Notes: a model not told the origin generated them from the sequence alone. DNA of 64,000 nucleotides from Candidatus Poribacteria bacterium (GCA_965222225.1 CBDCTK010000002.1:3776001-3840000), one strand, 5' to 3'; positions 962 to 63,883 are shown, numbered from the stretch's first letter. Numbers and translations: made by a program.

Positions 962-982
962 GTAGGGTGCGCACTGCGCACC
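962..982 (+). repeat. GTAG-type REP palindrome, empty form (GTAGGGTGCGCACTGCGCACC)
   Basis: GTAG followed by the hairpin GGTGCGCA-C-TGCGCACC. The same REP carries an inserted module at 14929-14983 and 56422-56476. Confidence 0.8.
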
Positions 983-1107
983 AGCCTTTTGTTTCTGTCG
1001 TATGATAGCACATTCCTTGCAACAGAAATCCCCGCCAACGCTTCAACCGATTTATAGTCGGGTCATCTTGCCCCGATTAACAGAGGTGCATTTAACCGAG
1101 ACTATGT

Positions 1108-1132
1108 GTAGGAGCGATCTCCAGGTCGCGAT
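1108..1132 (+). repeat. GTAG-type REP, GTAGGAGCGA family
   Basis: GTAGGAGCGATCTCCAGGTCGCGAT. Related minus-strand copies at 1511-1534, 14640-14663 and ~39643-39673. Confidence 0.65.
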
Positions 1133-1598
1133 TCCATAAACCCAAACGTTGTAGGAACGTTCAACTGACTGAACAAGGAAGGATCAAGCGAGTGGATAAC
1201 GAGCGCGATAGAGCCCAAGGCGATAGCTGATCCCGATAGAGATCCTGCACCAGCCCTTGGTTTCTGTCGTACGATAGCAAATCCTGATAGTGAATCCCGA
1301 TACAAAATCCCGTGCGATCAAGCGACTGGATAAGGAGCGATCAACTGAGCGAATAGTGAAGGCGATAGAAACTCAGGATAGAAATTCCTCACGCGACACG
1401 TATCAGGGGATCAAAGGAATGGACAATGGCTGCGATAGAGATCCCTTAATCCGCGATTCAGACAATGCGATAGAGTCCTTATAGACGTCTTCTACCGGTC
1501 ACCGCTTCCTGTCGCGAGCAGCGCTCGCTTCTACAACTCTGTCTCGCGTCGCGAGAAATCAACTGTGTGTTGCGTCTTGCTCAAACGCATATTTTTTG

Positions 1599-1627
1599 TT
1601 GCAAACAATATAGATCTGATATATAAT
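1599..1627 (+). promoter_or_regulatory. Sigma70-type promoter of the nuo operon
   Basis: TTGCAA (1599-1604), 17-nt spacer, TATAAT (1622-1627), ~85 nt upstream of nuoA. Confidence 0.75.
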
Positions 1628-1669
1628 TTAACCTGCTTCAATTTGCAAACGGCTTCTCAATATCCGATT

Positions 1670-1687
1670 TTGTGAAGTTTTTCACAA
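1670..1687. promoter_or_regulatory. Rex (NADH/NAD+ redox-sensing repressor) operator
   Basis: TTGTGAA-GTTT-TTCACAA is an exact match to the TTGTGAA-N4-TTCACAA Rex consensus and lies between the promoter and the nuoA start. Confidence 0.8.
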
Positions 1688-1711
1688 TCACTTGGAAAGA
1701 TAGCAGGGACA

Positions 1712-2116
1712 ATGTTTTTTAACTTCGCAAATGTACTGATTTTCCTTATCGTCGGTTCCGTTTTCGTGGCGCTGAACCTCGCCGTGTCTCGCCTGCTTCA
1801 AACGAAACTTTTCATGGAGGAGAAATTTATCCCGTATGAGTGTGGAGAGGATCCGATTGGCGATACGCGCATCAAGTTCAATACCCGCTTCTATGTCATT
1901 GCCCTCATTTTTTTGATTTTCGACGTTGAGGTGGTATTCCTGTTTCCGTGGGCGGTTGTTTTCCGCGGAATCGGTCTGCTTGCGTTTGTCGAGATGTTAA
2001 TCTTCATCGCCGTGCTGCTGGTTGGACTCGCCTACGTTTGGGCGAAGGGGGATCTTGAATGGATTCGTTCGATTCAGCAGGAGATTCAGGAAAAGCGTGA
2101 AGAAACTGAAGCCTAG
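1712..2116 (+). CDS. nuoA: NADH-quinone oxidoreductase subunit A
   Basis: PYECGEDP and [22 protein letters not shown] motifs, 3 TM helices, first gene of the operon. Confidence 0.97.
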
Positions 2117-2139
2117 CCGGGCGCGGAGGACGATTCGCT

Positions 2140-2730
2140 ATGATTTTTGATGAGAAACTTGACAAAAACATTTTCGTCACATCTGTGGACGCCGTTGCGA
2201 ATTGGGCGCGGGCTTCCTCATTGTGGCCCATGACCTTCGGACTGGCATGTTGCGCGATTGAGTTTATGGCAACGGCGGCTTCCAACTATGACCTGGATCG
2301 GTTTGGGGCGGGCGTCCCGCGTGCGACTCCACGGCAATCGGATCTGTTGGTGATTTCCGGCACCGTCACCCTGAAGATGGCAACGCGAATTAAGCGGCTC
2401 TACGAACAGATGCCCGAACCCAAATACGTAATCTCGATGGGGAGTTGCGCCACGAGTGGCGGTCCCTACTGGCAGCACGGTTATCATGTGCTCAAGGGCG
2501 TCGATAGAATTATCCCTGTTGATGTCTATGTGCCCGGTTGTCCTCCTCGTCCCGAAGCCTTGATCGAAGGCTTGCTGAAGCTCCAGGAGAAGATTAAAAC
2601 ACAAACCGTCGCCAAGCGGTCGTACATTCCGTTCCTGCGAAGGCTCTATACCAAAACCGATCTTGAGGATCAAGAGATTGCGGCAGCGGTGGAGGAAGGC
2701 GCCGAGGAGAAGGAAGAAGCGACTAGCTGA
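2140..2730 (+). CDS. nuoB: NADH-quinone oxidoreductase subunit B
   Basis: [19 protein letters not shown] and VPGCPPRPE (cluster N2 ligands). Confidence 0.98.
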
Positions 2731-2809
2731 CAAACACCCCGAATGAAGCGCGAAAGGAGAGTTGCAACGCAATAGGTTGGTTTCCAGTTCCAAATGCGTT
2801 GATTTATCT

Positions 2810-3292
2810 GTGACATCGGAAGAAATTTACACAAAACTCAAAGGGGTGTTTGGAGACTCTGTCCTGTCCATTCAGGAGGTCGTTCTAGATTCGTTTATCC
2901 TCATCGCACCCGAGGCAATCGCCGAGATTGCCCGTTTTCTCGCCGAAGATAGCGAGTTGGCGTTCGATTCGTTGATGTGCTTAAGCGGGGTTGACTTGAG
3001 CATTAAAGAATCGAACCTTGAAATCGTCTACCATCTCTTCTCAATGACCCACCGTCACACAATCGTCCTTAAAGTTAACCTACCCAAGGAAGATCCGCAC
3101 ATTCCCTCCGTCGAAGATATCTGGAAGACAGCAAATTGGCACGAGCGGGAAGCGTACGATCTCTACGGAATAACCTTTGAAGGACACAGTGATCTGCGGC
3201 GAATCCTGATGCCGGAGGACTGGGAGGGGCACCCGTTACGCAAGGATTACAAGGATCCCGAATTCTATCGGGGGATGCGCGTGCCGTATTGA
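2810..3292 (+). CDS. nuoC: NADH-quinone oxidoreductase subunit C
   Basis: ANWHEREAYDLYGI and RRILMPEDWEGHPLRKDY. The GTG at 2810 is preferred over the TTG at 2762; the start is uncertain. Confidence 0.95.
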   Translation: MTSEEIYTKLKGVFGDSVLSIQEVVLDSFILIAPEAIAEIARFLAEDSELAFDSLMCLSGVDLSIKESNLEIVYHLFSMTHRHTIVLKVNLPKEDPHIPSVEDIWKTANWHEREAYDLYGITFEGHSDLRRILMPEDWEGHPLRKDYKDPEFYRGMRVPY

Positions 3293-3322
3293 TGAATGAG
3301 GATTGCTGTTGCGACTCCTATT

Positions 3323-3384
3323 GTAGGGTGGGATCAAGGGAGCGAATAGCGAATAGCGACTGCGATAGAGATCCACCGCCCACC
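3323..3384 (+). repeat. GTAG REP carrying one inserted module
   Basis: GTAGGGTGGG[ATCAAGGGAGCGAATAGCGAATAGCGACTGCGATAGAGATC]CACCGCCCACC. The empty counterpart GTAGGGTGGGCACCGCCTACC is on the minus strand at 63863-63883. Confidence 0.85.
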
Positions 3385-3619
3385 ATTCCTTATTGAAGAG
3401 GTAAACCACCACTATTTGGGAACGTTTTGTGATATTGACTGCTGGTTCGTCAATACCTTAGGAAGAAATTATAGGCTTGCCGACGGATTAACTAATCGGG
3501 AATCACCAACACGAAATAGTTGTGTTTTTTCCTCAATGAATCGCCGAGCTACGAAGCCAAGAGGCCTCAACCGCCAAAGTCGCAATGTTATTATTCCTTG
3601 TTTCCGAAAGGAGAATATC

Positions 3620-5314
3620 ATGGTGCGCAAAACATCATTAATCGCTATTTTACTATGCCTAACCCTTCTTCTGCTGGGAAGAACCGCCGTGGCCAACATC
3701 CTTACGACCGAAGAGATTGCCGAGAAGGCGCTAAGTGCGACAGTTCTGCTAACGATGAGAGATGCGGACGATAGAGTAATCGGATATGGGAGCGGATTCT
3801 TTGTTTTACCGAATGTTATTGCAACCAACTTTCACGTGATTGAAGGTACACACCGAGGCACCGCCCGTCGCGTTGCTCAAAACAAATCGTATACCCTCAA
3901 ACAGCTTCTTAAGAGCGATGAAAAACAAGATTTGGCGCTGTTCGAAGTATCAGCTCCGGATGTCGAACCGCTTCCCATCGGCGACAGCGGTAGTAGGTCG
4001 TTACGAATCGGCGCGACAGTTTATGTTGCCGGTAATCCGCTGGGTTACTGGTGGGGGACCTTCTCCGAGGGTATTGTTAGCGCCCGTCGAAGTTGGGATG
4101 ATGGAGTGGAGAGGTTACAGATGACAGCTCCGATTTCGCCCGGAAACAGTGGCGGCCCCGTACTTAATAACAGAGGCGAAGTAATAGGTGTTTCCGTCGC
4201 ATCAAGTTCAGATGACAGGGCTCAAAATATCAACTTCGCCGTTCCATCTAGCGAACTCAAGAAACTCGTCGCAGAATTGAATCCCCCGACTGTGAGCCTT
4301 GTTCTCCCTCGGCGATCGAATTGGAATATTGGCGACACAGTTGATGTTTCTCTTAAAATCGACAACGGGACGGACATTGCAGGTTTTCAGGTAACCGTAG
4401 GATTTGATGGTTCCGTTCTTAAATATGTGGAGGCTTTGAAGGGTGATTACATCCTCAGAGGGGATGAGTTCGCACGTAAAATAGACGGCGAAAATCAGGT
4501 GACATTGGCGGCAACGGGCTTCCCCCAGGTAATGGATGACGATGGCGTACTTGCTGTAATTAAGTTTGAAGTTACTGCTTTCAAGCCTTATGGATGGGTA
4601 CTATCCGACCTAATTCTGTCCCGAGCGATTCTCGTGAATCCAGATGGAGGTCGTTCATATCCTCTTGTATCTCATGCGAAGGTATGGGCGCGCCCACTGG
4701 GATTCCAAGAAGATGTAAACGGTGATGGTGATGTAAATATTCTGGATTTACGATCTGTTTTCACCAATTTTGGGGTCCGGGGGAGGAATCATGCGGATGT
4801 CAATAAAGATGGTGTCGTTGATGTCGTTGATTTGGTAAGGGTTGCCTCTGCCATACACACTCCTCTGGGAGCTCCTCCATTCGCTCAAGAAGTTCTTGCG
4901 GGATTCACTGCCACAGAGCTGAAGCAATGGTTGACACAAGCCTCGCAGCTCGGTCTGACGGATCCCACTTCGCTGAAAGGCATTTTCGTTTTGGAGCAAC
5001 TCCTCAAAACATTCGTCCCGAAAGAGACGGCGCTGTTACCCAATTTTCCAAATCCCTTCAATCCGGAGACATGGATTCCGTACCACCTCGCCAGTGCCTC
5101 CGACGTGCAGATTGCGGTATACAACACAAACGGCGCGATGGTACGTCAATGGGACTTGGGACATCGAGAAGCTGGATTCTACACCGATAGAAGCAACGCC
5201 GTATACTGGGACGGACGTAATCGACACGGCCAGTTTATCGCAAGCGGCGTTTATTTTTACTCGTTAACTGCCGGTGATTTTACGGCTACCAGGAAAATGA
5301 TAATCGGAAAGTAA
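3620..5314 (+). CDS. Secreted trypsin-like (S1C) serine protease with cohesin-like, dockerin-like and C-terminal FlgD/T9SS-like sorting domains
   Basis: AAGGAG RBS before ATG 3620 and a signal peptide. Catalytic triad in TNFHV, QDLAL and PGNSGGP. Cohesin-like beta region (IAGFQVTVGFD), dockerin repeats DVNGDGDVNILDL / DVNKDGVVDVVDL, C-terminal NFPNPFNPETWIPY...YWDGRN...SGVYFY. Confidence 0.88.
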   Translation: MVRKTSLIAILLCLTLLLLGRTAVANILTTEEIAEKALSATVLLTMRDADDRVIGYGSGFFVLPNVIATNFHVIEGTHRGTARRVAQNKSYTLKQLLKSDEKQDLALFEVSAPDVEPLPIGDSGSRSLRIGATVYVAGNPLGYWWGTFSEGIVSARRSWDDGVERLQMTAPISPGNSGGPVLNNRGEVIGVSVASSSDDRAQNINFAVPSSELKKLVAELNPPTVSLVLPRRSNWNIGDTVDVSLKIDNGTDIAGFQVTVGFDGSVLKYVEALKGDYILRGDEFARKIDGENQVTLAATGFPQVMDDDGVLAVIKFEVTAFKPYGWVLSDLILSRAILVNPDGGRSYPLVSHAKVWARPLGFQEDVNGDGDVNILDLRSVFTNFGVRGRNHADVNKDGVVDVVDLVRVASAIHTPLGAPPFAQEVLAGFTATELKQWLTQASQLGLTDPTSLKGIFVLEQLLKTFVPKETALLPNFPNPFNPETWIPYHLASASDVQIAVYNTNGAMVRQWDLGHREAGFYTDRSNAVYWDGRNRHGQFIASGVYFYSLTAGDFTATRKMIIGK

Positions 5315-5449
5315 CTTGGACTGCAAGACAGGCACAGACCGGGGTAATCGCACCAGACTCCAAACCCGAGCTTGGATAAGTGGTGCTTTCAAATCATTAC
5401 ACTGTTGACGAAACGCTAATATTGAGAAACACAATCGAGCGGATTTATT

Positions 5450-5483
5450 ATGGCAGCGCCACAACTTGAAAGCAAATTCATAG
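5450..5483 (+). repeat. 34-bp exact copy of the nuoD 5' end
   Basis: ATGGCAGCGCCACAACTTGAAAGCAAATTCATAG is identical to 7649-7682. Confidence 0.95.
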
Positions 5484-5490
5484 TACAATT

Positions 5491-5599
5491 GTAGGGTGGG
5501 ATCAAGGGAGATCAAGCGACTGAATAAGGAGCGATCAACTGACTGGTTAAGGAAGGCGATAGTAGATCCTGATAGAAGATCCCGTGCGATAGAGATCCC
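5491..5599 (+). repeat. GTAG REP half followed by triply nested modules
   Basis: Three GATCAA left ends are followed by three GATAG..GATCC(C/T) right ends in bracket order. Confidence 0.9.
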
Positions 5600-5731
5600 G
5601 TGAAGGATGATGAGTATGAGGCATGGTTGAGCCTATCAATTCGGGGCTTGGGAGAAGCGTACGGGAAGGATGAACCGGAGTATTCTACCAACCTTATTAA
5701 AGAGGTAAACCCTCAGTATGAGGGAAGGTAA
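5600..5731 (+). pseudogene. 3' fragment of a small acidic protein, probably a type II antitoxin
   Basis: Translates VKDDEYEAWLSLSIRGLGEAYGKDEPEYSTNLIKEVNPQYEGR*, which resembles (from recall) C-termini of small proteins found upstream of PemK/MazF toxins. Begins directly after the module cluster, with no RBS. Confidence 0.45.
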
Positions 5732-5796
5732 TGTCATCTAGACCCCAGTTCTCTCAGATTAGTTGAGTTAGAAAGCGGTTAAACAAGACAGAAGAT

Positions 5797-7617
5797 ATGG
5801 ATGCAAATATAGTTAATCTACAGAAACTATTCCATCAACAGGTCTCCTATCGAATTCCCCAATTCCAGAGGCCCTACGCATGGAAAGAAGAGGTCCAATG
5901 GAAACCCCTTTGGGCTGACATACTTAGTCTTGCTGCACGCGTTCTCAACAGGGAAGAGGACGACAGAATACTCCCGCACTTCATGGGAGCTATCGTACTT
6001 CAACAACAGAGAAGCAATACAGGTGAAGTAACTAAAAGACTCGTAGTTGATGGGCAACAGCGACTCACTACCTTGCAACTTCTTATAAAGGCAACAGAAC
6101 AGGTATTTGAAATTCAACAGGATCCGGTAAGAGCCTCCCGATTGCGCGCACTAATAATTAATCAGAACAGCCATTGGGGCGCCGGTGGCGGTGACAACAA
6201 GACCAAAATCAAGCAGTCCAACTTCAACGATCAGAAAGCATTTCACGAAGCTATCGCGGCACCTCATATTGGTGATGAGAACCAATCGTGGGCACTTAAT
6301 GCTTTAAGTTACTTCAAAGAAGAACTGAGCAACTGGCTAAACTACGCCCCGGAAAGCATGAACGGCCGAGCCGATGCGTTCGAAGAAGCGCTGACTCAGC
6401 ATCTAAAAATAGCGGTAATTGACTTGGACGAAGACGAAAAACCTCACGTCATTTTTGAGACTCTGAACGCTAGGGGTGAACCGCTAAAGCAATCAGACCT
6501 TATTAAAAACATAGTTATGTACGAGGCAAATGTCATAGATGATGACGAGCAAGCGAAAAAACTTTGGGGCTTCTTTGACCACGAATGGTGGCAACAAGAT
6601 AGCAAGGAAAGTAGATCATCACCCACAATCCACATCGACAGATTCCTTCGCTACTGGATGGTCATGCGGTCGTTGAAAGATGTTACCGCAAATAGAGTCG
6701 CGTCGGAGTTCAGAAACTACTTAGGAGCCACACAATCATCCATTAAGACTGTTACCTCAGATATCCAAATGGCTGGAGCATGCTACGTGCTAATAGAAGG
6801 AAATTTTCGAGGTTTCCGAAAAAATCCAGAAAGGGAGATTTTCTTCAAACGACTGAAAACCATTGAATTAGGCGTAGTTACCCCTGTGCTTTTATGGCTA
6901 TTCACATCCAAGGTACCGGACGAGCGACAGCAGCGCTGCATTGAGATACTGGAAAGCTACGGGGTGAGGCGGAAACTCTGCGGCTTGCAGACCCAAGGCC
7001 TGAATAAGGTTTTTATCGGTTTACTTCAGGTGCTTGACAGTGAGGGGCCGGATTGCGCCGACATGACTGTTTTACGCTTCTTGAGACGTCAGCACGCTGA
7101 TAGCAGTATATGGCCCAATGATCGTATGCTGCGCGAATATCTTACTACCAGTCAAATGAAGGGTAATTCTCCTTGGAAGAAGATGGTACTAGAAGCCATT
7201 GAAGTACACTTGCGAAGTGATAGATCTGAGCAGCTCGGGTCAACCAGTAATTTAGAGATTGAACATGTTATGCCACAGACGTGGCAGACGGAGCACTGGC
7301 CGCTGTGGCCTGAAAATTCAAATCAAGATGAAGCTGAAAGCGCCAGAGACGAAGCTATACAAAAAATCGGAAATCTAACTCTGACGTCTGAAAAATTAAA
7401 TAAAATCCTAAGGAACGGCCCATGGCATGAAAAACGGCTAACGCTGGCTAATCATAGCAGTCTGTTTCTTAACAAGACATTACTTGATGATGCCCCCGGT
7501 GTTTGGGATGAAGCAGCCATTCAAAGACGCTGTCAATGGATAACTGAAAAAATCTTGCAGATTTGGCCCTCTGCTGAAGAGTTCGCCGAATCAGCCGCAC
7601 AATCTTCACAAATCTAA
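5797..7617 (+). CDS. DUF262 + DUF1524 (GmrSD-like, type IV restriction family) protein
   Basis: IPQFQRPYAW, VVDGQQRLTTL and IFETLNARG (DUF262). EIEHVMPQ...IGNLTL...LN (DUF1524 HNH-like). More AT-rich than the nuo genes. Confidence 0.92.
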   Translation: MDANIVNLQKLFHQQVSYRIPQFQRPYAWKEEVQWKPLWADILSLAARVLNREEDDRILPHFMGAIVLQQQRSNTGEVTKRLVVDGQQRLTTLQLLIKATEQVFEIQQDPVRASRLRALIINQNSHWGAGGGDNKTKIKQSNFNDQKAFHEAIAAPHIGDENQSWALNALSYFKEELSNWLNYAPESMNGRADAFEEALTQHLKIAVIDLDEDEKPHVIFETLNARGEPLKQSDLIKNIVMYEANVIDDDEQAKKLWGFFDHEWWQQDSKESRSSPTIHIDRFLRYWMVMRSLKDVTANRVASEFRNYLGATQSSIKTVTSDIQMAGACYVLIEGNFRGFRKNPEREIFFKRLKTIELGVVTPVLLWLFTSKVPDERQQRCIEILESYGVRRKLCGLQTQGLNKVFIGLLQVLDSEGPDCADMTVLRFLRRQHADSSIWPNDRMLREYLTTSQMKGNSPWKKMVLEAIEVHLRSDRSEQLGSTSNLEIEHVMPQTWQTEHWPLWPENSNQDEAESARDEAIQKIGNLTLTSEKLNKILRNGPWHEKRLTLANHSSLFLNKTLLDDAPGVWDEAAIQRRCQWITEKILQIWPSAEEFAESAAQSSQI

Positions 7618-7648
7618 ACGTGTTTCATAAGGTCTAAACGAGTTCACC

Positions 7649-10207: not shown

Positions 10208-10861
10208 ATGAATAAGTATTTCTTTAATATCTATAGAGCGCTCTATACGGTGCTCATCGGCATGCGCATAACGTTTAAGCAGATGTTCCAGCACGCAGTT
10301 ACGCACCAATATCCCTATGAACATCCGTTCGAGAAAAAGCGAAATGTACGCGAGATTCCCAAGGGCTATCGGGGACAACTGTTCAATCGGATTGAGGACT
10401 GTATCGGTTGCAAGAAGTGCGAAATGATCTGTCCTGTTGACTGCATCGCCATCACGACCCAAAAACTTCCCAAAGGCGAACGGCTTTGGGATAGCATGAA
10501 TGTGCTCCATCTTACGGATCGCACGGAGGTTGTCGGTTTCGTCGAAGGCGAGGAAAAGGTTGCTCCAAACACAACGGTTACCGTTAAAACTCGCGATGGG
10601 GAGACACTGACAATCCCGAGCGACGATATAAATCGTGTCGTCGAACGGAAACCTGTCATCTTCTATCTTGACAAGTTTGACATTGATATGTCGCTCTGCA
10701 TGTACTGCGGGCTTTGTACCGAGGTTTGCCCGACGGAGTGCTTGATAATGATAGATGAGATGAGGGGCATTGCGTATTCAACGTTTGACAGAATGGACTT
10801 GATATTTCCGTTCGCCAAGCCCGATATGTACGATCAAGCGAGTGATCAAGGGAGTGAATAA
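10208..10861 (+). CDS. nuoI: NADH-quinone oxidoreductase subunit I with an internal insertion
   Basis: CIGCKKCEMICP and CMYCGLCTEVCP are the two [4Fe-4S] motifs. The last residues (DQASDQGSE*) are encoded by the repeat module. Confidence 0.93.
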   Translation: MNKYFFNIYRALYTVLIGMRITFKQMFQHAVTHQYPYEHPFEKKRNVREIPKGYRGQLFNRIEDCIGCKKCEMICPVDCIAITTQKLPKGERLWDSMNVLHLTDRTEVVGFVEGEEKVAPNTTVTVKTRDGETLTIPSDDINRVVERKPVIFYLDKFDIDMSLCMYCGLCTEVCPTECLIMIDEMRGIAYSTFDRMDLIFPFAKPDMYDQASDQGSE

Positions 10862-11058
10862 CGACCGCGATAGAACTCCCATAGAGATCCCTCAAGCGAG
10901 TGAATAACGACCGCGATAGCTAATCCCGATAGTAACTCCCTCAAGCTACTGGAAAAGGAGCGATCAACTGAACGGATAGTGAAGGAGCAACTGACCGATA
11001 GGGAAGGCGGTAGAGATCCCATAGAAAGTCTTGATAGTGAATCCTAATAGCAAATCCC
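10832..11058 (+). repeat. Cluster of nested modules overlapping the nuoI stop
   Basis: About 6 left ends and 8 right ends. Clean copy at 10844-10880. Stacked right ends (GTAGAGATCCC-ATAGAAAGTCTT-GATAGTGAATCCT-AATAGCAAATCCC) at 11010-11058. Confidence 0.9.
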
Positions 11059-14588: not shown

Positions 14589-14717
14589 GTGGGGAATATC
14601 TGGTTTAGAGCCTGTTTGGTCATTTGAAAGGGGCTTTTGTCGCGAGCTGGAGTTCGCTCCTACAAACCAGACACGAAGCAGAGAAGATTTCACCTTCGAT
14701 TTGATTTGATGATCAAG

Positions 14718-14769
14718 GTCGGTCTGGATTGCCAAATCCAGACCGACCGTCGGACTTGGCAATCCGACG
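14718..14769. repeat. Two adjacent inverted palindromes (REPIN-like pair)
   Basis: GTCGGTCTGGATT-GCCA-AATCCAGACCGAC followed by CGTCGGACT-TGGC-AATCCGACG. The same GGATTGCCAAATCC core is at 54151-54164. Confidence 0.6.
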
Positions 14770-14796
14770 GGCGCAGAGATGTGTCGGTCAGACTTA

Positions 14797-15167
14797 GAGC
14801 CTGTTTGAAAATTCATTTCGGGTAGAACTTTTGCCCTGAAACCGATCAAATGAGCGAATAGCGAATGTGATAAATGTGATAGAAATCCCTATTTTCTTGA
14901 AAACTCCGTTTCTTTCTTGCGCAATCCCGTAGGGTGCGATCAAAGGAATGAATAATGACTGCGATAGAGATCCCCTGCGCACCAGCCTTTGTGAGCCCCA
15001 GCGGGGATCAAGCAAGTGGATAACGATCGAGCGACTGAATAAGGAGCGCGATAGAAATCCCGTGCGATTAGGAATCCTATAGGTGTATAGCAGGCGACCA
15101 CAAAAGCATGAAAAAGCCGCGCCCAAGGTGACCGAAATTGCTTTGCCACCTATTTTCAAGCAGGCTC
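14797..15167. mobile_element. MITE / internally deleted IS (IS5-like ends) in the nuoL-nuoM spacer
   Basis: TIRs GAGCCTGTTTGAAAAT (14797-14812) and ATTTTCAAGCAGGCTC (15152-15167) match at 15/16. TTA on both flanks (14794-96, 15168-70). No transposase. A further left-end-like TTAGAGCCTGTTTG is at 14605-14618. Confidence 0.75.
14844..15077 (+). repeat. Module copies inside the MITE
   Basis: One copy at ~14844-14889, one at 14938-14974 inside REP 14929-14983, and a nested pair at 15006-15077. Confidence 0.88.
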
Positions 15168-15244
15168 TTAAGGGAAATGAACTAGACCTGACAAGAGGAT
15201 GTATTTCAATTTTTGCAGTGGTGTAATTGGGAGGTATTTATTAG

Positions 15245-23544: not shown

Positions 23545-23641
23545 AGCGAGCGAATAGCGAGTAGGATTTTCTATCGCGTTGGGATCTCTGTAGGATCTCT
23601 ATCGCGGCCGCTATCCACTCAGTTGATCGTTCCCTTGATCC
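23545..23641 (-). repeat. Nested modules on the minus strand plus one partial plus-strand copy
   Basis: The reverse complement of 23564-23640 reads GATCAAGGGAAC[GATCAACTGAGTGGATAGCGGCCGCGATAGAGATCC]TACAGAGATCCCAACGCGATAGAAAATCC. Confidence 0.85.
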
Positions 23642-38892: not shown

Positions 38893-39579
38893 TTATGCGT
38901 TCGCTCCGGTCATCGGCACAAAACGGACTCCGGTGATTACTGTCTGTTTGATTCCCCGTTCCGTCTTTCGAACCAGGACAAGCTCTTGATTCAAAGTACC
39001 AATCGGGAGTACTAACCTGCCGCCGATTGCAAGTTGATTGATGAGCCGATGCGGAACTTCCTTTGGTGCCGCTGCCACAAGAATCCCGTCGTAGGGTGCG
39101 TGCTCTTGCCATCCGTAGTAGCCATTGCCAATCTTCAGATGAATATTCTGATAACCAAACGTGTTGAGACGCTGTTGCGCATCTTTCGCGAGATTCTCTA
39201 TGATTTCTACGGTGTAAACCTGCTCAACGATTTCCGCTAACACAGCAGTTTGATAGCCGCAACCGGTGCCGATTTCGAGCACTTTGAAAGCCGGCTGCAG
39301 TTCGAGAAGCTCTGTCATCTGAGCAACGATGTAAGGTTGAGAAATGGTCTGGTTGTCAGCAATCGGCAAGGCATGATCGGCATAAGCCTCGCTCAGAAAC
39401 GATGGCTCAACAAACCGATGTCGAGGAACCTTGCTCATCACCTCCAACACGCGTGGATTGGCAACTCCACGATCGTGAATCTGCTTACGAACCATCTTGT
39501 GCCTTAATTTGGCATAGTTATTCTCTGCGACGTGAGGCGTGTTCCGGGACTTTCGGACATTGAAGCGCATTGTCATCAC
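38893..39579 (-). CDS. pcm: Protein-L-isoaspartate O-methyltransferase
   Basis: VPRHRFV, QTISQPYIVAQM, VLEIGTGCGYQTAVL, VRFVPM. Confidence 0.96.
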   Translation of the reverse strand: MMTMRFNVRKSRNTPHVAENNYAKLRHKMVRKQIHDRGVANPRVLEVMSKVPRHRFVEPSFLSEAYADHALPIADNQTISQPYIVAQMTELLELQPAFKVLEIGTGCGYQTAVLAEIVEQVYTVEIIENLAKDAQQRLNTFGYQNIHLKIGNGYYGWQEHAPYDGILVAAAPKEVPHRLINQLAIGGRLVLPIGTLNQELVLVRKTERGIKQTVITGVRFVPMTGANA

Positions 39580-56421: not shown

Positions 56422-56476
56422 GTAGGGTGCGATCAAAGGAACGAATAATGATTGCGATAGAGATCCCCTGCGCACC
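56422..56476 (+). repeat. GTAG REP carrying one inserted module (56431-56467)
   Basis: Near-identical to 14929-14983; empty form at 962-982. Confidence 0.9.
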
Positions 56477-56632
56477 AGCCTTTGAAAGCGCCAGCGACGC
56501 GACGGGTCATTGAAAACCTCGCCAGCGTTGAGGGCGTCGCTTAATGGTTGGAAGTGCGTCCAAACAACTCACGTTATTGCGCTCTAAACCAGATTTTCAC
56601 CGCTCATTTTATCCACAACTAAGGAGGGCAAA

Positions 56633-57607: not shown

Positions 57608-57748
57608 TGGAAAGTCATTTCTGGTTGTAATGAAAGCGCGAATGCCCTCTTGTATGATTTCTCACGGATTTCAGTTTAATCCAACCTACGCACCAAGTAA
57701 TAACCTACTCAAATTCAATATTGAAAAAAACCATCAAGGAACTTCAAT

Positions 57749-58783
57749 ATGCCAAGAGAACTTGTTGCTATCTCTTTACGAAACCCGGTCCTCCGCGAGT
57801 ATGAGGAGTCGGAACTCAAGCCCGAAGAGGTCAGGATAAGAAGCCTCTTCTCGGCGCCCAAACACGGGAGTGACCTTCGCACCTATCGGGCGGATACCAA
57901 AGATTATTCGAAGCCGTTTGATAAAGAGCGGCGCCTCCATGCCGGAACACCAAAATCCCCGACGTTTCCAATGAAATTGGGGAATATGACGGCAGGACAC
58001 GTTGTTGAAGTCGGGGGAGAGGTGACCGATTTTGAGGTAGGAGACCGCGTATTCGGATACCTGCCCATCCGTGAAACCCATACCGTTGATGCGCAGAGAT
58101 TGAAGAAAGCGCCCGATGGAATGGCACCCGAAGCCATCGTCTACTCGGATCCGGCCGGAGTAGCGCTCGGAGCCATCCGCGAGAGCAAACTGCGTATCGG
58201 CGATCGTGTTTCCGTGCACGGACTCGGCGCTATCGGGCAGATGGCGCTGCAGCTTGCTCGACTTCAAGGCGCGCGGTGGATAGCGGCAACCGATCCAATC
58301 CCGCTGCGCTGTGAGCTCGCCAACAAGCATGGCGCCGATCTTGTCGTTAATCCGGTCGCTCAAGACGCGGGCTTCGTCATCAAAGATCAGACGGACAAAA
58401 TCGGCGTAGATGTTGCCCTTGAGACGAGCGGGAACTATGCCGCTTTGAACGATGCATTGCGTGCCGCGGGTTATGGCGGGACGATTGTCTCGTCGGCGTA
58501 TTATACCGGCGACTCCCACGCTCTGAGTCTTGAAGGCGAATGGCACCGAAATCGGCTCACGATTATCTCCAGTCGAGATGTGAGTCAGCCCCTTCGTGAC
58601 CATCCGCTGTGGGATTCCAAACGCATCCATCAAGAGGCGTTTGCGCTGCTGCAGGAGGGGCGGCTTTCGGTGGAGGGTTTAATCCATCCTATCGTCACCT
58701 TCGACGAATCGGCTGAAGCCTACCGCGAAATCGACGAAGCGCCGGAGCTTAGCATTAAGCTGGGAATTCGGTACGATATCTAA
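57749..58783 (+). CDS. MDR (zinc-binding alcohol dehydrogenase-like) oxidoreductase
   Basis: G.VVEVGGEVTDFEVGDRV (GroES-like), VHGLGAIG Rossmann motif, GVDVALETSG. Confidence 0.85.
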   Translation: MPRELVAISLRNPVLREYEESELKPEEVRIRSLFSAPKHGSDLRTYRADTKDYSKPFDKERRLHAGTPKSPTFPMKLGNMTAGHVVEVGGEVTDFEVGDRVFGYLPIRETHTVDAQRLKKAPDGMAPEAIVYSDPAGVALGAIRESKLRIGDRVSVHGLGAIGQMALQLARLQGARWIAATDPIPLRCELANKHGADLVVNPVAQDAGFVIKDQTDKIGVDVALETSGNYAALNDALRAAGYGGTIVSSAYYTGDSHALSLEGEWHRNRLTIISSRDVSQPLRDHPLWDSKRIHQEAFALLQEGRLSVEGLIHPIVTFDESAEAYREIDEAPELSIKLGIRYDI

Positions 58784-58799
58784 CAAAGGAGATCATGAT

Positions 58800-59843
58800 T
58801 TGCAACTTCTATCGAATGAAGTCATCTATCACGATGGCAAACACAACGCGTTTACGTCCATGGTGCGTTGGAATGACAAATACTGGGTAGCCTTCAGAAA
58901 CGGCGCCTCTCACAAATCCGATGACGGTCGCCTCATTGTCATGAATTCAAGCGATCTGGTGACGTGGTCTGAGCCGCAGGAGGTCATCGACACCGATATC
59001 GACGACCGGGATCCGGCTGTATTCGTTTGCGATGATCGGTTATTCCTTGTCAGTATGTCCTACGAACGCAAGCTGCATGAGGGGGAAAAGCAGCGGCGCC
59101 TCGTTAGTATGAGAAGCTACGTCGTCAGCAGCAGCGATGGCGTAAACTGGACGCAACCGCAAATGGCTTTGCCGGAGCATCGGGTCATCTGGTGGGTATC
59201 GTCTGGTCCCGACGCACTCTATGGGTCTGTGTACGGTGCGGGTACGGCGAACGAAGGCGCCGATTATTTTCGGTGGACGGAACTCTGGCGGAGTACGAAC
59301 GGATTAGAATGGGAGAAGGTTGGCATCATTTCCGACGAAAATCGGGCGACGGAGTGCGCGCTGGCTTTTCTACCGGACAAGCGGTTGGTTGCTTTTGTAA
59401 GGCACGATGAACACGACAAGCCGGAGATCAAGATTGCTTCGCCCCCATATCGTGAATGGGAGACCGCCGTGGAACTCGGTTTCAGGAACAATGGACCCGC
59501 TATCGGACGTGTCGGGGATAAGCTGGTAACCGCGACCAGAGCCATATTCGAAGATCCCAACACACCACTCGCGGATGACCTCTGCAGAGAACGGCGAAGG
59601 GGCATGATTATGGGCGTGTTCGATCCGGATACGCTCCAATGGGAGCCTGCCTTGGCGATTCCCCACGCCCGCGGGGTTATGAGTCCCAACGATCCGGACG
59701 GTCACGCGGACTCGGGCATGAATTGGCCCGATGTGTCGTATGCCTCTATCATGGACTTGGGCGATGGAAACTTCGTGATGATTTATTATGAAGGGTTTAA
59801 GGGCCCGCCCTCCGATATTCGTGCGGCAATGCTAAGGATGTAG
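58800..59843 (+). CDS. Sialidase-like / BNR beta-propeller protein
   Basis: HNAFTS, DDRDP, Asp-boxes SSDGVNW and STNGLEW, DVSYAS. Confidence 0.7.
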   Translation: MQLLSNEVIYHDGKHNAFTSMVRWNDKYWVAFRNGASHKSDDGRLIVMNSSDLVTWSEPQEVIDTDIDDRDPAVFVCDDRLFLVSMSYERKLHEGEKQRRLVSMRSYVVSSSDGVNWTQPQMALPEHRVIWWVSSGPDALYGSVYGAGTANEGADYFRWTELWRSTNGLEWEKVGIISDENRATECALAFLPDKRLVAFVRHDEHDKPEIKIASPPYREWETAVELGFRNNGPAIGRVGDKLVTATRAIFEDPNTPLADDLCRERRRGMIMGVFDPDTLQWEPALAIPHARGVMSPNDPDGHADSGMNWPDVSYASIMDLGDGNFVMIYYEGFKGPPSDIRAAMLRM

Positions 59844-60134
59844 GTAAGTTTTAATACTAAGGTTGGTCTACTGAAGCGACTAGGAAGGCTGGGGTTGGAA
59901 GCATGGAAGAGGGGAAGAGTGGAAGGTTCGCTCCGACGGGGCCCTCAAACCTCTGGAGCGGCATCATGGGAGCCAAAAGCTAGATAAAGCCTAACTAAAT
60001 GTGTCAAGCTAGCTAGAGTTGGGTTTCACCGTGTTCAACCCAACCCACAGGCTACACATCTCTTTTGATGTCTTCCCAACGGAACGTCTTGCCTTCAGCT
60101 AGATGCTTCTTTGCAGCTTCAAGAAATGAAATTT

Positions 60135-60182
60135 GTACCGCAATCTGTTAGTTTGCGTTCACAATCTAACAGATTGTGTTAC
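60135..60182. repeat. REPIN (inverted REP pair) upstream of the RAYT gene
   Basis: GTACCGCAATCTGTTAGTTTGCG followed by the inverted partner CACAATCTAACAGATTGTGTTAC. Confidence 0.85.
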
Positions 60183-60206
60183 ATTCCGTGTAGAATAGAG
60201 AAACGG

Positions 60207-60929
60207 ATGAGCCATTTTGATCGCAAACTGTTCTACCAGCGTAACCTGCCGCATATACAACCGCCGGGTGCAACTTTCTTCGTCACGTTCAACCTTGCAG
60301 GTTCCCTACCACGAGCCGTACTGCAGCAGCGGAACGCAGAGAAACGCCAACTTGACGCAGAAAAATCGCACCTTCTAAAGTTGCACGGTGCCTCTCATTT
60401 CGAGGTGGTCGGAGATATAACATCTGAGCAAAAACAGGAACATCGTGAATGGAACCGGCGGTGGTTCCGAAAGTTTGAAACAGCGTTGGATAATGCACAA
60501 AGTGGGCCTCTATGGCTCAAAGACGAGCGGATTGCTAAAGAGGTAGCAGAGAGCCTGCGCTACCGAGATGGGAAAGTATACCGCTTGGACGCTTATTGCA
60601 TCATGGCAAATCATGTACATGTTGTGTTTGCTCCACTTGCAATACAACCTTCCGAAGAGGCGCAAACTAACAGTTTGCGGTACAACACACTTGCCTCCAT
60701 TATGCAATCGCTCAAAGGTTACACAGCGTGGAAGGCTAATCGTGTATTAGGGCGCAGTAACGCATTCTGGCACCATGAAAGTTACGATCATAGTGTGCGG
60801 AACACAAGCGAGTGGCAACGGATTGTCACCTACGTTCTCAATAACCCTGTAAAAGCGGGTTTAATCAAGGATTGGGAAAAGTGGCAGTGGAGTTATTTCC
60901 GGGGCTTTCACGGTATCGCAAACTGTTAG
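60207..60929 (+). CDS. REP-associated tyrosine (Y1/HUH) transposase, RAYT
   Basis: RNLPH...TFFVTF, AYCIMANHVH (HUH), SLKGYTA, FWHHESYDH, YVLNNPVKAGL...W.WS. Flanked by REPINs. Confidence 0.9.
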   Translation: MSHFDRKLFYQRNLPHIQPPGATFFVTFNLAGSLPRAVLQQRNAEKRQLDAEKSHLLKLHGASHFEVVGDITSEQKQEHREWNRRWFRKFETALDNAQSGPLWLKDERIAKEVAESLRYRDGKVYRLDAYCIMANHVHVVFAPLAIQPSEEAQTNSLRYNTLASIMQSLKGYTAWKANRVLGRSNAFWHHESYDHSVRNTSEWQRIVTYVLNNPVKAGLIKDWEKWQWSYFRGFHGIANC

Positions 60930-61082
60930 TTTGCGGCCACAATCCAACAGATTGTGCTACAGAAAGAGAGACAGTTCAACAGCATGAGTAGCATTCTCGT
61001 ACCGCAAACTGTTTGTGTGCGTTCACAATCTAACAGATTGTGGTACAGAAGAGAGACGGTTTAATAGCATGAATAGGATTCT
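60913..61082. repeat. Two tandem REPIN+spacer units (~86 bp each) downstream of the RAYT gene
   Basis: REPINs at 60913-60960 and 60999-61046, each followed by AGAA(A)GAGAGAC.GTT.AA.AGCATGA.TAG.ATTCT. Confidence 0.88.
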
Positions 61083-61325
61083 TTGATGTCGCCCCAGTAA
61101 TTTAGCTACCGGTTTTTCGCTCCAGAGAAGCAGTGTGTTTGTAAAATGTGCACAGTTTCTATTCTTCCTAGTCAATGCGTAAGATGAACTTCCATATTGA
61201 AACTTGCTCAAATGTTTTAGATGTCAGGATATATGGCATATAGCCCGATTCCCGTCGAATCTCCAAAATCGGCACTGAGTCTGGATGTGTTGTTCAAGAG
61301 GTACAACTAGCAAAGGAGTTAACTC

Positions 61326-62273
61326 GTGAACCAATCATTCAACGTCCCCCGACGCAGGTGGGGCAAAAGCGAAATCTCGATTCCGGTCATCCCGTTCGGC
61401 ACGCAGGGATTCGGCAACAATTTTGGTCATGTCACCGACGACGAAGCCTGCGAACTCATGCGGCACTCGATAGATATCGGAATAAACCATTTCGATACCT
61501 CGCTCTGCTACGGCGACTCGCAGCGCAAGGTCGGCGTCGCGCTCAAGAGCGGCGCCATCAGGCGCGACGAGATCGTCCTAAGCGCGCGAATCTGTTGTAA
61601 TTTCACATACGAGTGGAACGGAACGGATTTCGAGCGGAATTCAAAGGATCCCGACTATTCCTCCGACTACGCTATGGCAAATATCGAGAAACAGCTGGAG
61701 CTAACGGGAACCGACCATTTCGACGCCATGTCTATCCACGACCCGGTCGAAATCGAGCCGACCTTGGCGAAGGAGGGAACGTTCGAATGCCTCAAGAAGT
61801 TGAAATCCCGCGGCATCGTCCGTAATATCGGGTATGCAATGAATCCGCACGATTTCCATCTCACGGCAATGGAAACGGGCGAGGTGGACGTGCTGCTCAC
61901 GTTCAACGACTACAATCTGTTCGGCACGACCGCCGCGGATGATATTCTTCCCGCCGCCGCGGAACGAGACATCGGCGTGCTTAACGGATGGTCGATAAAA
62001 CGGGGGCTTTTGACGGGAATCGATCTCTCCGGACGCGATCGAAGTAATTCGGAGGTCGATCGGGCAATCAAGATGCGTCAGTGGTGCATTGACAACGGCT
62101 ACAGCCTATTGGCGATGGCGCTGGGGTTTTGCTTGCGGGAGGAGCGCATCCACGGCAACCCCATCGGCAGCCTGAACATCGAACAGTTGGAACTGAACGC
62201 GCGAGCGGTGAGCGAACCGTTGCCCGAGGGCGCGCTTGACCGATTTTTGGAACAGGAGTGGGCCAAGTCGTGA
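61326..62273 (+). CDS. Aldo/keto reductase family protein
   Basis: GINHFDTSLCYGDS, IHDP, LKSRGIVRNIG. AAGGAG RBS. Confidence 0.87.
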   Translation: MNQSFNVPRRRWGKSEISIPVIPFGTQGFGNNFGHVTDDEACELMRHSIDIGINHFDTSLCYGDSQRKVGVALKSGAIRRDEIVLSARICCNFTYEWNGTDFERNSKDPDYSSDYAMANIEKQLELTGTDHFDAMSIHDPVEIEPTLAKEGTFECLKKLKSRGIVRNIGYAMNPHDFHLTAMETGEVDVLLTFNDYNLFGTTAADDILPAAAERDIGVLNGWSIKRGLLTGIDLSGRDRSNSEVDRAIKMRQWCIDNGYSLLAMALGFCLREERIHGNPIGSLNIEQLELNARAVSEPLPEGALDRFLEQEWAKS

Positions 62274-62315
62274 GGCGTGTATGTTGAGCGCTTCACTTGA
62301 GGAGGATGCGCAGAC

Positions 62316-62354
62316 AGTTCTATCGCGCTCCTTATTCAGTCACTTGATCCCTAC
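62316..62354 (-). repeat. Single module on the minus strand preceded by GTAG
   Basis: The reverse complement reads GTAGG-GATCAAGTGACTGAATAAGGAGCGCGATAGAACT. Confidence 0.85.
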
Positions 62355-62378
62355 AGTAGAAACTAATTCGAGGAGCAA

Positions 62379-63845
62379 ATGCCAAAAAGACCGAACGTAC
62401 TTCTTATTATCACCGATCAGCAGCGTTACGACACGCTCCACTGCGGCGGACAGGAGGCTATCGAAACGCCGCATATCGATTGGCTTGCCCAGCGCGGAGT
62501 CCGCTTCACGCGAGCGTTTTGCGCCACGCCAATCTGTTCGCCCGCCAGAGCGTCACTCCTGTCGGGGATGTATCCACATCAGCACGGAATGGTAGCAAAT
62601 CATCAGCCTCGACCGGGATGCGATCAGATGCACCTCAGCCCGGATGTCAAGCTAATCGCCGATTATCTGAAACCGGAGGGCTATACCTGCGGCTATACCG
62701 GAAAATGGCACCTCGGCACCGGCAGCGACCGGCGGGGTTTTGGCGACTATGTAGCCCGCCACTTCGATTTCGATACGGATACCCCGGAAGAAAACGAGGC
62801 GATAACCCACGCACGCGCTATCGGGATTGAACTTCCCGGCAGGCGGCAGGGCACCGAGGCGAATCCGGCGACGTTTAACGAAAGGACGCGGGTCGGTCCT
62901 AGCCTGATGCCCCTTGCGGATCACGCGGCGACGCTCATGTGTAATCGCGCCATGACATTCATTCAGGGGCAACAGCACAGCGACGATCCGTTCATGCTCG
63001 TCTACAGCACGCACGAGCCGCACTCGCCATTTGTCTCGCCGCGACCGTTTGACACGATGTACCAGCCCGAGGACATGCCGCTGCCGCCGACCTTTACCGA
63101 CGTTTCATTCCATCCGCACACCAAACGGCGCCAGGACAATCAACTCAAGAAGATAAACGAAATGGGTCTCACCGAGTCGGAGATGCGGGAGATTGTGGCT
63201 GCCTATTTTGGACAGGTGAGTTTCTGCGATCACCTCGTAGGGCGATTGGTTGCCGCTCTCATAGACACCGGACAACTTGATGATACCCTCGTCATCTTTA
63301 CCTCTGATCACGGCGAGATGATGGGCAGGCACAATATGCTGTTGAAGGGAGCGGCGGTGTTTGAGGACTTGGTGCGAATACCGCTGCTCGTCGTGCCGCC
63401 CGGCGGGCTCGATTCGGAGGGCGTAGACCCGGGACTTGTTTCGCACATCGATCTGATGCCCACGATTTTCGACTGGTGCGGCGCGAAAACTCCGACCGGC
63501 TTGGACGGGATGTCGCTGCGCCCGCAAATTGAGGGTTCTCCCGACACGAGAAAGCTTGACCGAGCACGCGCGGGCGTGGTCACCGAGTTTCATTCCTGCA
63601 ACTGGACAAATCCGATTGGACCGTTACGTATGTGGCGCACCGAGGAGTGGAAATATGTCGAGTCGTATCACGGCGATCACGAGCTTTATCACCTCGCCGA
63701 CGACCCGCATGAGTGCCGCAATCTGATTGACGATCCCGCGGCATCCGACGTGCTGGCATCGCTGAGGGATGGCTTGCGCGACTGGTGCGAGCGCACCGGG
63801 GATACCTGGCCCGATGTCGTCATCCCGCCGGAAAAGCCGAAGTAG
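62379..63845 (+). CDS. Formylglycine-dependent sulfatase (S1)
   Basis: RPNVLLIITDQQR, CSPARASLLSG (CxPxR), GKWHLG, FTSDHGE. Confidence 0.95.
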   Translation: MPKRPNVLLIITDQQRYDTLHCGGQEAIETPHIDWLAQRGVRFTRAFCATPICSPARASLLSGMYPHQHGMVANHQPRPGCDQMHLSPDVKLIADYLKPEGYTCGYTGKWHLGTGSDRRGFGDYVARHFDFDTDTPEENEAITHARAIGIELPGRRQGTEANPATFNERTRVGPSLMPLADHAATLMCNRAMTFIQGQQHSDDPFMLVYSTHEPHSPFVSPRPFDTMYQPEDMPLPPTFTDVSFHPHTKRRQDNQLKKINEMGLTESEMREIVAAYFGQVSFCDHLVGRLVAALIDTGQLDDTLVIFTSDHGEMMGRHNMLLKGAAVFEDLVRIPLLVVPPGGLDSEGVDPGLVSHIDLMPTIFDWCGAKTPTGLDGMSLRPQIEGSPDTRKLDRARAGVVTEFHSCNWTNPIGPLRMWRTEEWKYVESYHGDHELYHLADDPHECRNLIDDPAASDVLASLRDGLRDWCERTGDTWPDVVIPPEKPK

Positions 63846-63862
63846 GTTGCGGTTCACGGAAT

Positions 63863-63883
63863 GGTAGGCGGTGCCCACCCTAC
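63863..63883 (-). repeat. GTAG REP, empty form (GTAGGGTGGGCACCGCCTACC)
   Basis: Empty counterpart of the filled REP at 3323-3384. Confidence 0.75.

Follow-up and report, generated by a model that had tools for sequence, protein, structure and literature searches.

The closest described counterparts of the element reported here are the small dispersed repeats (SDRs) of the Nostocaceae, of which SDR4–6, 21–27 nt long, were reportedly described by Elhai et al. in 2008 (Genome Res 18:1484). Secondary sources place SDR5 precisely between bases 3 and 4 of HIP1, GCG^ATCGC (PMC4390886, PMC5861425, PMC3116915), and one of them states that SDR-like repeats were not found outside the Nostocaceae (PMC5861425). 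Here we analyse a 64-kb window of a Candidatus Poribacteria bacterium (G000:C2:3776001-3840000; genome G000, 5.70 Mb in two contigs), in which a sequence of 36–37 nt, hereafter the module, interrupts hairpins of the repetitive extragenic palindromic (REP) type. The module is very probably a mobile repeat of extremely small size, spread by copy-in, that lives as a parasite of other repeats. Its behaviour most resembles that of an SDR; judged by the features that define those groups, it is not a REP, not a member of the IS200/IS605 family or of the palindrome-associated transposable elements (PATEs), and not a DDE-type miniature inverted-repeat transposable element (MITE).

Like SDRs, the module is very small, non-coding and precisely inserted in other short palindromic repeats, and it shows the features by which SDRs are defined, namely precise insertion within repeats, no target-site duplication (TSD) and nesting. 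It follows GCG or GGG and begins with ATC, as in the SDR5 site GCG^ATCGC. It differs from SDRs in that its sequence is unrelated, its length is greater (36–37 nt) and its host belongs to a different phylum; its targets are GTAG-tagged REPs, a MITE and the module itself, and a covarying hairpin with tandem G.A pairs is documented here. A cyanobacterial origin or a link to HIP1 was considered and rejected, HIP1 not being enriched (120 occurrences against 87 expected).

Empty and filled copies of one REP family, REP1, occur side by side in the window (Table 1). The empty copy at 962 reads GTAGGGTGCG and, directly after it, CACTGCGCACCAGCCTTT. In the copies at 3323, 14929 and 56422, an insert beginning with ATCAA and ending with GATAGAGATC comes directly after the first ten bases of this hairpin and splits it. 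The filled copies at 14929 and 56422 consist of GTAGGGTGCG, then ATCAAAGGAA[T/C]GAATAATGA[C/T]TGCGATAGAGATC, then CC and CTGCGCACCAGCCTTT, and at 14929 the CA present in the empty site has been replaced. At 3323, GTAGGGTGGG, a 41-nt module and CACCGCCCACC follow one another as an exact insertion with zero bases lost. This last module carries an internal 7-nt duplication (GCGAATA GCGAATA), a heptamer slippage in its hairpin region.

Table 1. Positions of REP hairpins, modules and composites, counted from the first base of the window
Feature	Position	Strand	Details
Empty REP1	962–982	+	GTAG + 7-bp stem GGTGCGC, loop ACT, GCGCACC; conserved tail AGCCTTT to 989
Empty REP1, G-variant	63863–63883	−	GTAGGGTGGGCACCGCCTACC
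Filled REP1	3323–3384	+	5′ arm 3323–3332; module 3333–3373 (41 nt); remainder CACCGCCCACC 3374–3384 intact
Filled REP1	14929–14983	+	5′ arm 14929–14938; module 14939–14972; CC 14973–14974; 3′ part CTGCGCACC 14975–14983
Filled REP1, near-identical composite	56422–56476	+	Module 56432–56465, 2 substitutions relative to 14939–14972
REP1 5′ arm with three nested modules	5491–5599	+	Arm 5491–5500 (GTAGGGTGGG); left parts 5501–5510 and 5511–5533; complete inner module 5534–5569; right parts 5570–5583 and 5584–5599; REP 3′ arm missing
GTAGGG, then module	62315–62354	−	GTAGGG 62354–62349; module 62348–62315
371-nt MITE with terminal inverted repeats	14797–15167	+	GAGCCTGTTTGAAAA ... TTTTCAAGCAGGCTC; between nuoL and nuoM
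Nested pair	830–900	+	Outer left 830–852; inner module 853–887 (+CT); outer right GATAGAAATTC 890–900
Run of modules and module halves	1183–1443	+	Includes complete module 1410–1443 after GGGG
Array of truncated and complete modules	10833–11043	+	Between nuo genes
Modules beside long GTAGTAGGCA-type REP (REP4)	23565–23639	−	
REP2 (GTAGGAGCGATCTCCAGGTCGCGA), second GTAG REP family, empty	1108–1133	+	
REP2, another copy	14640–14663	−	

This pattern exceeds chance: the window holds 7 matches to GTAGGGTGSG where 0.12 would be expected, and 12 to the 3′ motif of the module, GATAGAGATCC with at most one mismatch, where 1.19 would be. One GTAGGGTGSG match, at 39091, is unrelated to the REPs, as it lies inside an open reading frame (ORF) and has no REP 3′ half. 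An earlier, sequence-only reading of the window had quoted the empty and filled strings, all of which we located where it had placed them; it had also noted GTAG starts before the modules at 5491 and 62354, and both are there, the second on the minus strand.

REP1 is a GTAG-tagged REP by its 5′ GTAG, short stem-loop, high copy number and mostly intergenic location (29 of 220 empty copies fall within crude ORFs). The consensus of 243 empty copies is TT-GTAG-GGTG[C/G]GC-ACT-GC[G/C]CACC-AGCCTTT, with the core TTGTAGGGTG[C/G]GCACTGC[G/C]CACC. Positions 8 and 16 of this 7-bp-stem hairpin covary (C:G 56%, G:C 40%), and its DNA fold has an energy of −8.8 kcal/mol (z −3.3). A genome-wide census of filled and empty REPs, which the sequence-only reading had proposed as a check, agrees with the window: among 414 occurrences of GTAGGGTG, 243 go on as an intact hairpin and 90 go on with ATC, giving 243 empty and 90 ATC-filled REP1 starts. 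Beyond REP1 the genome holds three further GTAG families, REP2 (GTAGGAGCGATCTCC..GGTCGCGA), REP3 (GTAGGCGGGG..CCCCGCC) and REP4 (GTAGTAGGCA..), and the module is found in all four families, whose stems are unrelated. It interrupts 97 of about 333 REP1, 30 of 230 REP2 and 17 of 51 REP3 copies.

A loose pattern recovers 787 simple modules from the genome and 16 from a reversed-genome control; 443 of the matches are 34 nt long and 260 are 35 nt. With a strict pattern the count is 627, and the reversed pattern returns 0 across all 61 genomes of the comparison described below. All copies have the 5′ ATC by definition of the search. The base that precedes the module is G in 86% of the 787, with C (48%) or G (36%) at −2 and G (56%) at −3, and the two bases that follow are pyrimidines (C 77% or T 19%, then C 56% or T 31%). 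This trailing pair is independent of the left flank and therefore belongs to the module, which is thus 36–37 nt long. Its layout is ATCAA, a hairpin, and GCGATAG-NNN-TC-YY, where YY is the pyrimidine pair, and it has no coding capacity.

In the 505 copies that are in frame, the module can be written ATCAA-X1X2-GA-Y1Y2-GRATA-Y2'Y1'-GA-X2'X1'-GCGATAG. The 18-nt hairpin comprises two base pairs, tandem G.A, two further base pairs and a GRATA loop. Its four variable pairs are Watson–Crick in 375, 473, 482 and 432 of the 505 copies, against 44–105 in slid controls, and each of them uses three base-pair types. Wobbles are asymmetric, G.T or T.G occurring 196 times and A.C or C.A 19 times, which indicates that pairing is maintained or selected on the strand that reads ATCAA...GATAG. 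At the gathering score, Rfam 15 gave 0 matches on either strand of the 64-kb window.

Exact 9-mers on both sides identified a paralogous empty site for 261 of the 787 modules. The left junction is exact in 226 of these 261; ATC is followed by CC in 95, C in 32, CT in 22, T in 10 and nothing in 8; and at the right junction 0–3 target bases, rarely up to 5, are gone. None of the 261 sites has a TSD, so the absence of any duplication claimed in the sequence-only reading holds genome-wide at paralogous empty sites. Its statement that 0–2 target bases are lost describes the window sites correctly and proves too narrow for the genome, given the wider range of losses. In REP1 there are two insertion sites, TGCG^CAC, 5–6 nt after GTAG in the 5′ arm, and its equivalent in the 3′ arm. 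The usual outcome, GCG[module]CC-CTGC with the CA of the empty site gone, is seen 15 times with 8 module variants, and the exact outcome, GCG[module]CACTGC or CACC, 3 times. No excision scar was found among 164 intact REP1 loops.

GTAG lies within 16 nt upstream of 174 of the 787 modules (22%), as against 3% of random positions and 51 copies in the inverse orientation, and the distances peak at GTAG+6 (93) and GTAG+5 (36). About 27% of modules (~214 of 787) follow the left part of another module, with hot spots after G23 (82), G19 (36), G12 (35), G17 (20), G18 (16) and G10 (12), and 55 follow a CCCnGGG hairpin. Most of the copies that neither follow GTAG nor are nested in modules lie in other repeats. 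At least one flank is repeated five times or more in 336 of 506 module units, and 93 units have two unique flanks. Because so many copies are nested in modules or follow CCCnGGG, the module parasitises repeats in general and not just REPs. The sequence-only reading, which had proposed an element within an element, was thus right that modules have been inserted in pre-existing REP hairpins, and too narrow in limiting them to REPs, given that 22% follow GTAG.

Several other targeting rules were tried and rejected. In 81 of the 787 modules (10.3%, against 4.7% of shuffled pairs) the two flanks can form 5 bp or more with each other, which makes insertion at hairpin apices a minority feature. Guide or cleavage-site pairing as in IS608, in which the left flank would pair with what follows ATC, showed no association (p 0.1–1.0 for −1 to −3 against +1 and +2). 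An RTAG+6 rule for nested inserts rested on 33 ATAG cases at distance 6, not above expectation given that G occupies 58% of those positions. Iterative peeling of inner modules newly revealed 84–110 copies, compared with 53–99 in shifted controls, and did not discriminate a nesting grammar.

Insertion is strand-specific. After any GTAG-N3-9, 160 modules are direct and 4 inverted; the REP1 inserts are all direct (75 in the 5′ arm, 22 in the 3′ arm, 0 inverted), and direct modules outnumber inverted ones by 30 to 1 in REP2 and 17 to 0 in REP3. This choice of strand is near absolute though the REP stems are near-palindromic and offer the same local sequence on both strands. The strand with negative local GC skew carries 437 of 641 modules and 240 of 322 REP1 copies, and for modules this bias runs against the G-richness of their top strand. 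Relative to neighbouring genes, on a crude ORF map, there is no orientation bias (186 against 188).

The copied unit is the module itself. One identical 29-nt variant is present in 47 copies and at least five contexts: it occupies both arms of REP1, 5′ and 3′, as well as REP2, further GTAG hairpins and no fewer than 12 different outer modules. Such sharing of a variant among contexts identifies the module as what is copied. Simple inserts in the REP1 5′ arm include at least 14 distinct variants of the module's left half, and 54 distinct 24-mers follow that arm, the major variant accounting for 21. No long or autonomous element with module ends was found among 801 left halves in the genome, of which 655 go on to GATAG, 96 run into a nested module and 46 have decayed tails. 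A second, unrelated insert of 35 nt (type B, ATCGRCRATCRTCAAATCRYCGATTTCCCCTCTTA), with a 9-bp hairpin of its own, also begins with ATC, follows G at the same REP1-like position and replaces CA; it occupies 26 places in contig C2 (for example 2645384, minus, and 5167938, plus), about half of them in REP1-like hairpins.

Composites of module and REP are themselves multiplied. The filled REP1 at 14929, together with modules at 14845–14889 and 15011–15059, lies within the 371-nt composite between nuoL and nuoM, which is a DDE-type MITE by its terminal inverted repeats (TIRs; 15 bp, one mismatch), its TSD (TTA at 14794–14796 and 15168–15170) and its presence/absence polymorphism. Contigs of runs X3, X7, X10 and X11, from four studies, join 14784 to 15167 with a single TTA and a shorter side of 58–61 nt; joints with sides below 30 nt (such as 1383 to 1435 and 5531 to 5571), which may come from paralogous repeats, were excluded. 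The MITE family (TIR GAGCCTGTTTGAA..) has 15 full copies of 160–390 nt with a TSD of TTA or TAA; 10 of them contain a filled internal REP1 and 5 an empty one. Such a TWA duplication pattern is known for IS5/PIF-type transposases. The suggestion that a filled REP can itself spread is therefore confirmed, the copy at 14929 riding in a MITE that is missing from the contigs of four runs.

Chimeras are concentrated at G000:C2:1527000-1546000, where a REP1 5′ arm, the left part of a module, CTATAT and a complete REP1 recur in a dense cluster. This suggests either that modules, too, receive insertions of REP1 led by CTATAT or that there has been local recombination.

The module is confined to particular lineages among the 61 genomes of the order that were compared, with one genome per species for the relatives. 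The strict pattern yields 407–984 copies per genome in 10 of 10 genomes of the genus (g1) and 133–156 in 4 of 4 genomes of one genus (g4) of another family; elsewhere it yields 0–2, except for 15 in G059. In the second genus the module tail is mostly GATAGTCTTC, and the copies again lie within hairpins. Trace counts in G010, G041, G043 and G059 were left out of this distribution. G059 belongs to an otherwise module-free genus, and 13 of its 15 copies are on contigs C72 and C116, which may be mis-binned or a transferred island. In a scan of one genome per species, each of the 99 stretches among the matches listed belongs to a Candidatus Poribacteria metagenome-assembled genome.

How does the module compare with systems other than SDRs? 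REP hairpins are reportedly targets of insertion sequences, namely IS1397 in the palindromic units of E. coli and IS110/IS1111-family elements (said to be treated by Tobes and Pareja 2006). There, too, REP hairpins are preferred and orientation-specific landing sites, but those insertion sequences are full-size and protein-coding, whereas the module measures 36 nt, is without an autonomous partner in its genome and also nests in itself. Mosaic small repeats, such as the motifs of bacterial interspersed mosaic elements (BIMEs) in E. coli and the BOX elements of pneumococci, form intergenic arrays of a few short modules in variable number. Arrays of the present module differ from these in being nested left-left-right-right with exact left junctions after G, a grammar that argues for insertion rather than tandem shuffling.

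Elements of the IS200/IS605 family and PATEs insert 3′ of a short target without a TSD, in a strand-specific and hairpin-dependent manner, and their orientation is linked to replication. They have two subterminal hairpins, exact junctions on both sides and a length of at least about 100 nt, whereas the module has one hairpin in 36 nt, a target that merely ends in G, an imprecise 3′ junction, no excision footprints and no match to the TnpB zinc ribbon in its genome. A guide mechanism of the IS200/IS605 type is described in PMC8266576. With REPtrons, in which REPs accompany a gene for a REP-associated tyrosine transposase (RAYT), the genome shares much: REP1–REP4 have the 5′ GTAG, a covarying stem, an intergenic location and high copy number. 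The module is REP-like as a single hairpin with conserved flanks that is strand-specific and tolerates G.T pairs, a tolerance noted for GTAG repeats (PMC3733652). Unlike REPs, it begins with ATCAA, has neither a GTAG nor a CGTC tag at its 5′ foot, carries its invariant GCGATAG 3′ of the hairpin and is found within REPs, not next to a RAYT gene, and no RAYT type follows its phyletic pattern. Literature searches on Poribacteria REPs, on nested inserts in RAYT/REP systems and on works citing the SDRs returned nothing on the module.

The explanation that we favour, at slightly better than an even chance, is a tiny non-autonomous copy-in repeat that is handled single-stranded and joined after G, and whose composites are multiplied by their hosts. 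The 36–37-nt module, lacking autonomy, would be handled as a single strand, and a copy would be linked through its 5′ A to the 3′ side of a G, either in the REP strand that carries GTAG or inside another module or other small repeat. The 3′ end would be resolved less exactly, two terminal pyrimidines staying and 0–3 target bases being lost. Composites would then multiply through the mobility of their hosts, the TIR MITE with its TWA duplication and probably the REPs themselves.

Several lines of evidence together point to a defined single-stranded intermediate. First, the unit boundaries are sharp and the 5′ junction after G is exact. Second, covariation is maintained on a single strand, and landing is specific to the GTAG-side strand on four unrelated REP stems. 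Third, a replication-strand bias is combined with the lack of a TSD and of an autonomous partner. We infer that it would consist of single-stranded DNA which a nuclease that recognises hairpins makes and joins in trans.

For the joining step, a REP-associated HUH/Y1 enzyme is the leading candidate, if a tentative one whose involvement we rate clearly below even, because TnpA_REP cuts single-stranded DNA beside REP hairpins with GTAG as a guide and performs strand transfer in vitro (PMC8266576). Five matches to the Y1 profile PF01797 occur in the genome. One intact gene of 157 aa, with the motifs DHIH and YIKNQEAHH, resembles a class-1 subclass without REPs (table of PMC6006769); a truncated gene is similar to subclass 2.4 (NH[IFV]H, YIxNNP), a group of genes with internal REPs (PMC6006769), and the intact relatives of this gene that five genomes of the genus possess likewise contain REPs, of other kinds. 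RAYT-type Y1 genes are flanked in one case by REP2 (internal TAG) and in another by REP4; REP1 lies only upstream of the class-1-like gene, and no Y1 gene has it on both sides. In the genome the TnpB zinc ribbon gave no match, and neither did Y2_Tnp (IS91), a result that is uninformative as the control genomes were silent too.

Two further observations concern individual genes. At G000:C2:3560268-3560543 (L005/L130), a truncated RAYT-like gene with the motif YIKNNP has its 5′ half replaced at a module. A 247-aa Y1-family protein (G000:C2:2563965-2564705) is 99% identical between G000 and G005, whose housekeeping genes are about 85–90% identical at the DNA level, a disparity that suggests recent horizontal transfer.

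Some of the evidence weighs against the explanation that we favour. The five Y1 types are found in 36, 9, 26, 32 and 7 of the 61 genomes; none tracks the module (10 of 10 genomes in g1, 4 of 4 in g4), as they occur in many module-free genomes and are missing from some module-bearing ones. Two Y1 genes, L001 and L005, that had appeared to be flanked by inverted modules were rejected as candidates when their relatives showed an inherited context or other REPs. The cuts that the junctions imply, between G and A at the left end and between G and C in the target, are unlike the sites reported for TnpA_REP in PMC8266576, between C and T and between C and A, and the imprecise right junction with small target deletions is unlike the precise cut-and-join of HUH enzymes of the IS608 type. 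The hairpin is weak in nearest-neighbour models (minimum free energy 0 for DNA and −2.7 kcal/mol for RNA, z +0.4); since standard energy models do not make it stable, a protein or an unusual G.A-rich fold may hold it. GC skew in the genome is weak and patchy with many sign changes, so the replication-strand bias is suggestive only. In the strain contigs only the MITE yielded an orthologous filled/empty polymorphism, and no single module gave one as clean; because many copies descend from composites, the counts overstate independent events.

The HUH/Y1 transposition that the sequence-only reading had proposed therefore fares unevenly: strand specificity and replication-strand bias fit it, and the imprecise right junction, the lack of Y1 co-occurrence and the lack of excision footprints go against it. 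Its fullest form, a 36-nt single-hairpin micro-transposon that a REP-associated HUH or other hairpin nuclease excises as single-stranded DNA and pastes into the GTAG-guided strand of a REP during replication, we regard as unlikely.

Somewhat less likely again is replication-coupled template switching, in which a strand stalled in a REP or module hairpin, and ending in G, would jump to a module copy and back through 1–3 nt of microhomology. This would produce insertions with small deletions, and chimeras, with no need for a dedicated transposase; it accommodates the variable right junction with its 0–3 lost bases, the chimeras that join the 5′ part of an outer element to a complete inner element while the outer 3′ part is missing, the orientation bias relative to GC skew, the hot spots in hairpin arms and the lack of any co-occurring transposase among those searched for. 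Template switching should, however, give ragged segments, and the unit boundaries are sharp and constant (G before in 86%, YY after). Nor does it explain a strand specificity of 160:4 on near-palindromic stems or the spread of the same 29-mer over many contexts.

We consider it improbable that the module moves by RNA-mediated, target-primed reverse transcription, its transcript being copied into a nick and the bases between two nicks being lost. The G and YY at the junctions would then stem from non-templated bases and 1-nt microhomology, and extra pyrimidines with small target deletions do resemble the template-jumping products of reverse transcriptases. Tolerance of G.U-type wobbles on one strand only would suit an RNA, as would the RNA fold of one module copy, which reproduces the covariation hairpin. 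Against this, the genome has a single weak RVT_1 match (27.5 bits) in an isolated 670-aa ORF that is not linked to modules, the direction of neighbouring genes has no bearing on how modules are oriented, and the identity of the exact junction misfits a top-sense RNA primed at its 3′ end, absent extra assumptions.

Still fainter is the case for no insertion at all, in which filled and empty REP1 would be old subfamilies with long and short loops, and all mobility would come from MITE hitch-hiking, REP amplification and local duplication or deletion. Filled REPs do demonstrably spread inside the TIR MITE, the major variant does account for 21 of the arm-adjacent 24-mers, and the unrelated 35-nt type B insert occupies the same position in the REP1 loop. 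Two old subfamilies do not account for at least 14 module variants at one REP1 site, for the same module in four REP families of unrelated stems and also in the 3′ arm, for nesting at defined G positions of other modules or for identical copies in at least five contexts. A conventional cut-and-paste DDE MITE with a 6-bp TIR, GGGATC/GATCCC, is hardly credible for the module: the ends can pair (GGGATC...GATCCC) in copies after GG, but GG is target sequence and varies, no TSD exists at 261 of 261 paralogous empty sites, orientation is strictly tied to the target strand and no long element has module ends, so that the junction data contradict it.

Other loci of the window show how its repeats vary. 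In the array between nuo genes, the truncated left part at 10833–10844 (ATCAAGCGAGTG) has, in a contig of run X7, 11 extra bases (GAATAGCGAGC) that complete the hairpin at 10843; a truncated half can hence result from a deletion that follows insertion, or the other way round. Immediately downstream of the nuoL stop, contigs of three of the four runs that lack the MITE also pass over 135 nt (14589–14723; sides of 61 nt), a stretch with a MITE-end-like AGAGCCTGTTTGG together with an inverted REP2. Among ten species the orthologous nuoL–nuoM spacer, as extracted, ranges from 170 to 672 nt, and between species these spacers are too diverged for module-by-module alignment. The nested array at 5491–5599 is adjoined by an ORF (5797–7617) that has both the N- and the C-terminal domain of GmrSD, a family of type IV restriction enzymes.

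How REPs and very small repeats multiply is an open question, and natural products of TnpA_REP-type reactions are scarce. The genus offers hundreds of natural junctions, with landing that is specific to strand and GTAG side, a covarying hairpin and a nested grammar, and the question can be tested with oligonucleotides and the handful of Y1 proteins that these genomes encode. If true, the micro-transposon reading would document for the first time in nature that REP machinery performs intermolecular strand transfer in vivo, and it would explain how mosaic intergenic arrays build up, with the REP as landing pad. For the organism, an uncultivated sponge symbiont, parasitism in three layers (of a REP by the module, of a MITE by the REP and of the genome by the MITE) makes the spacers of the essential nuo operon hypervariable between strains and species, which matters for the assembly, binning and strain-typing of sponge-symbiont genomes.

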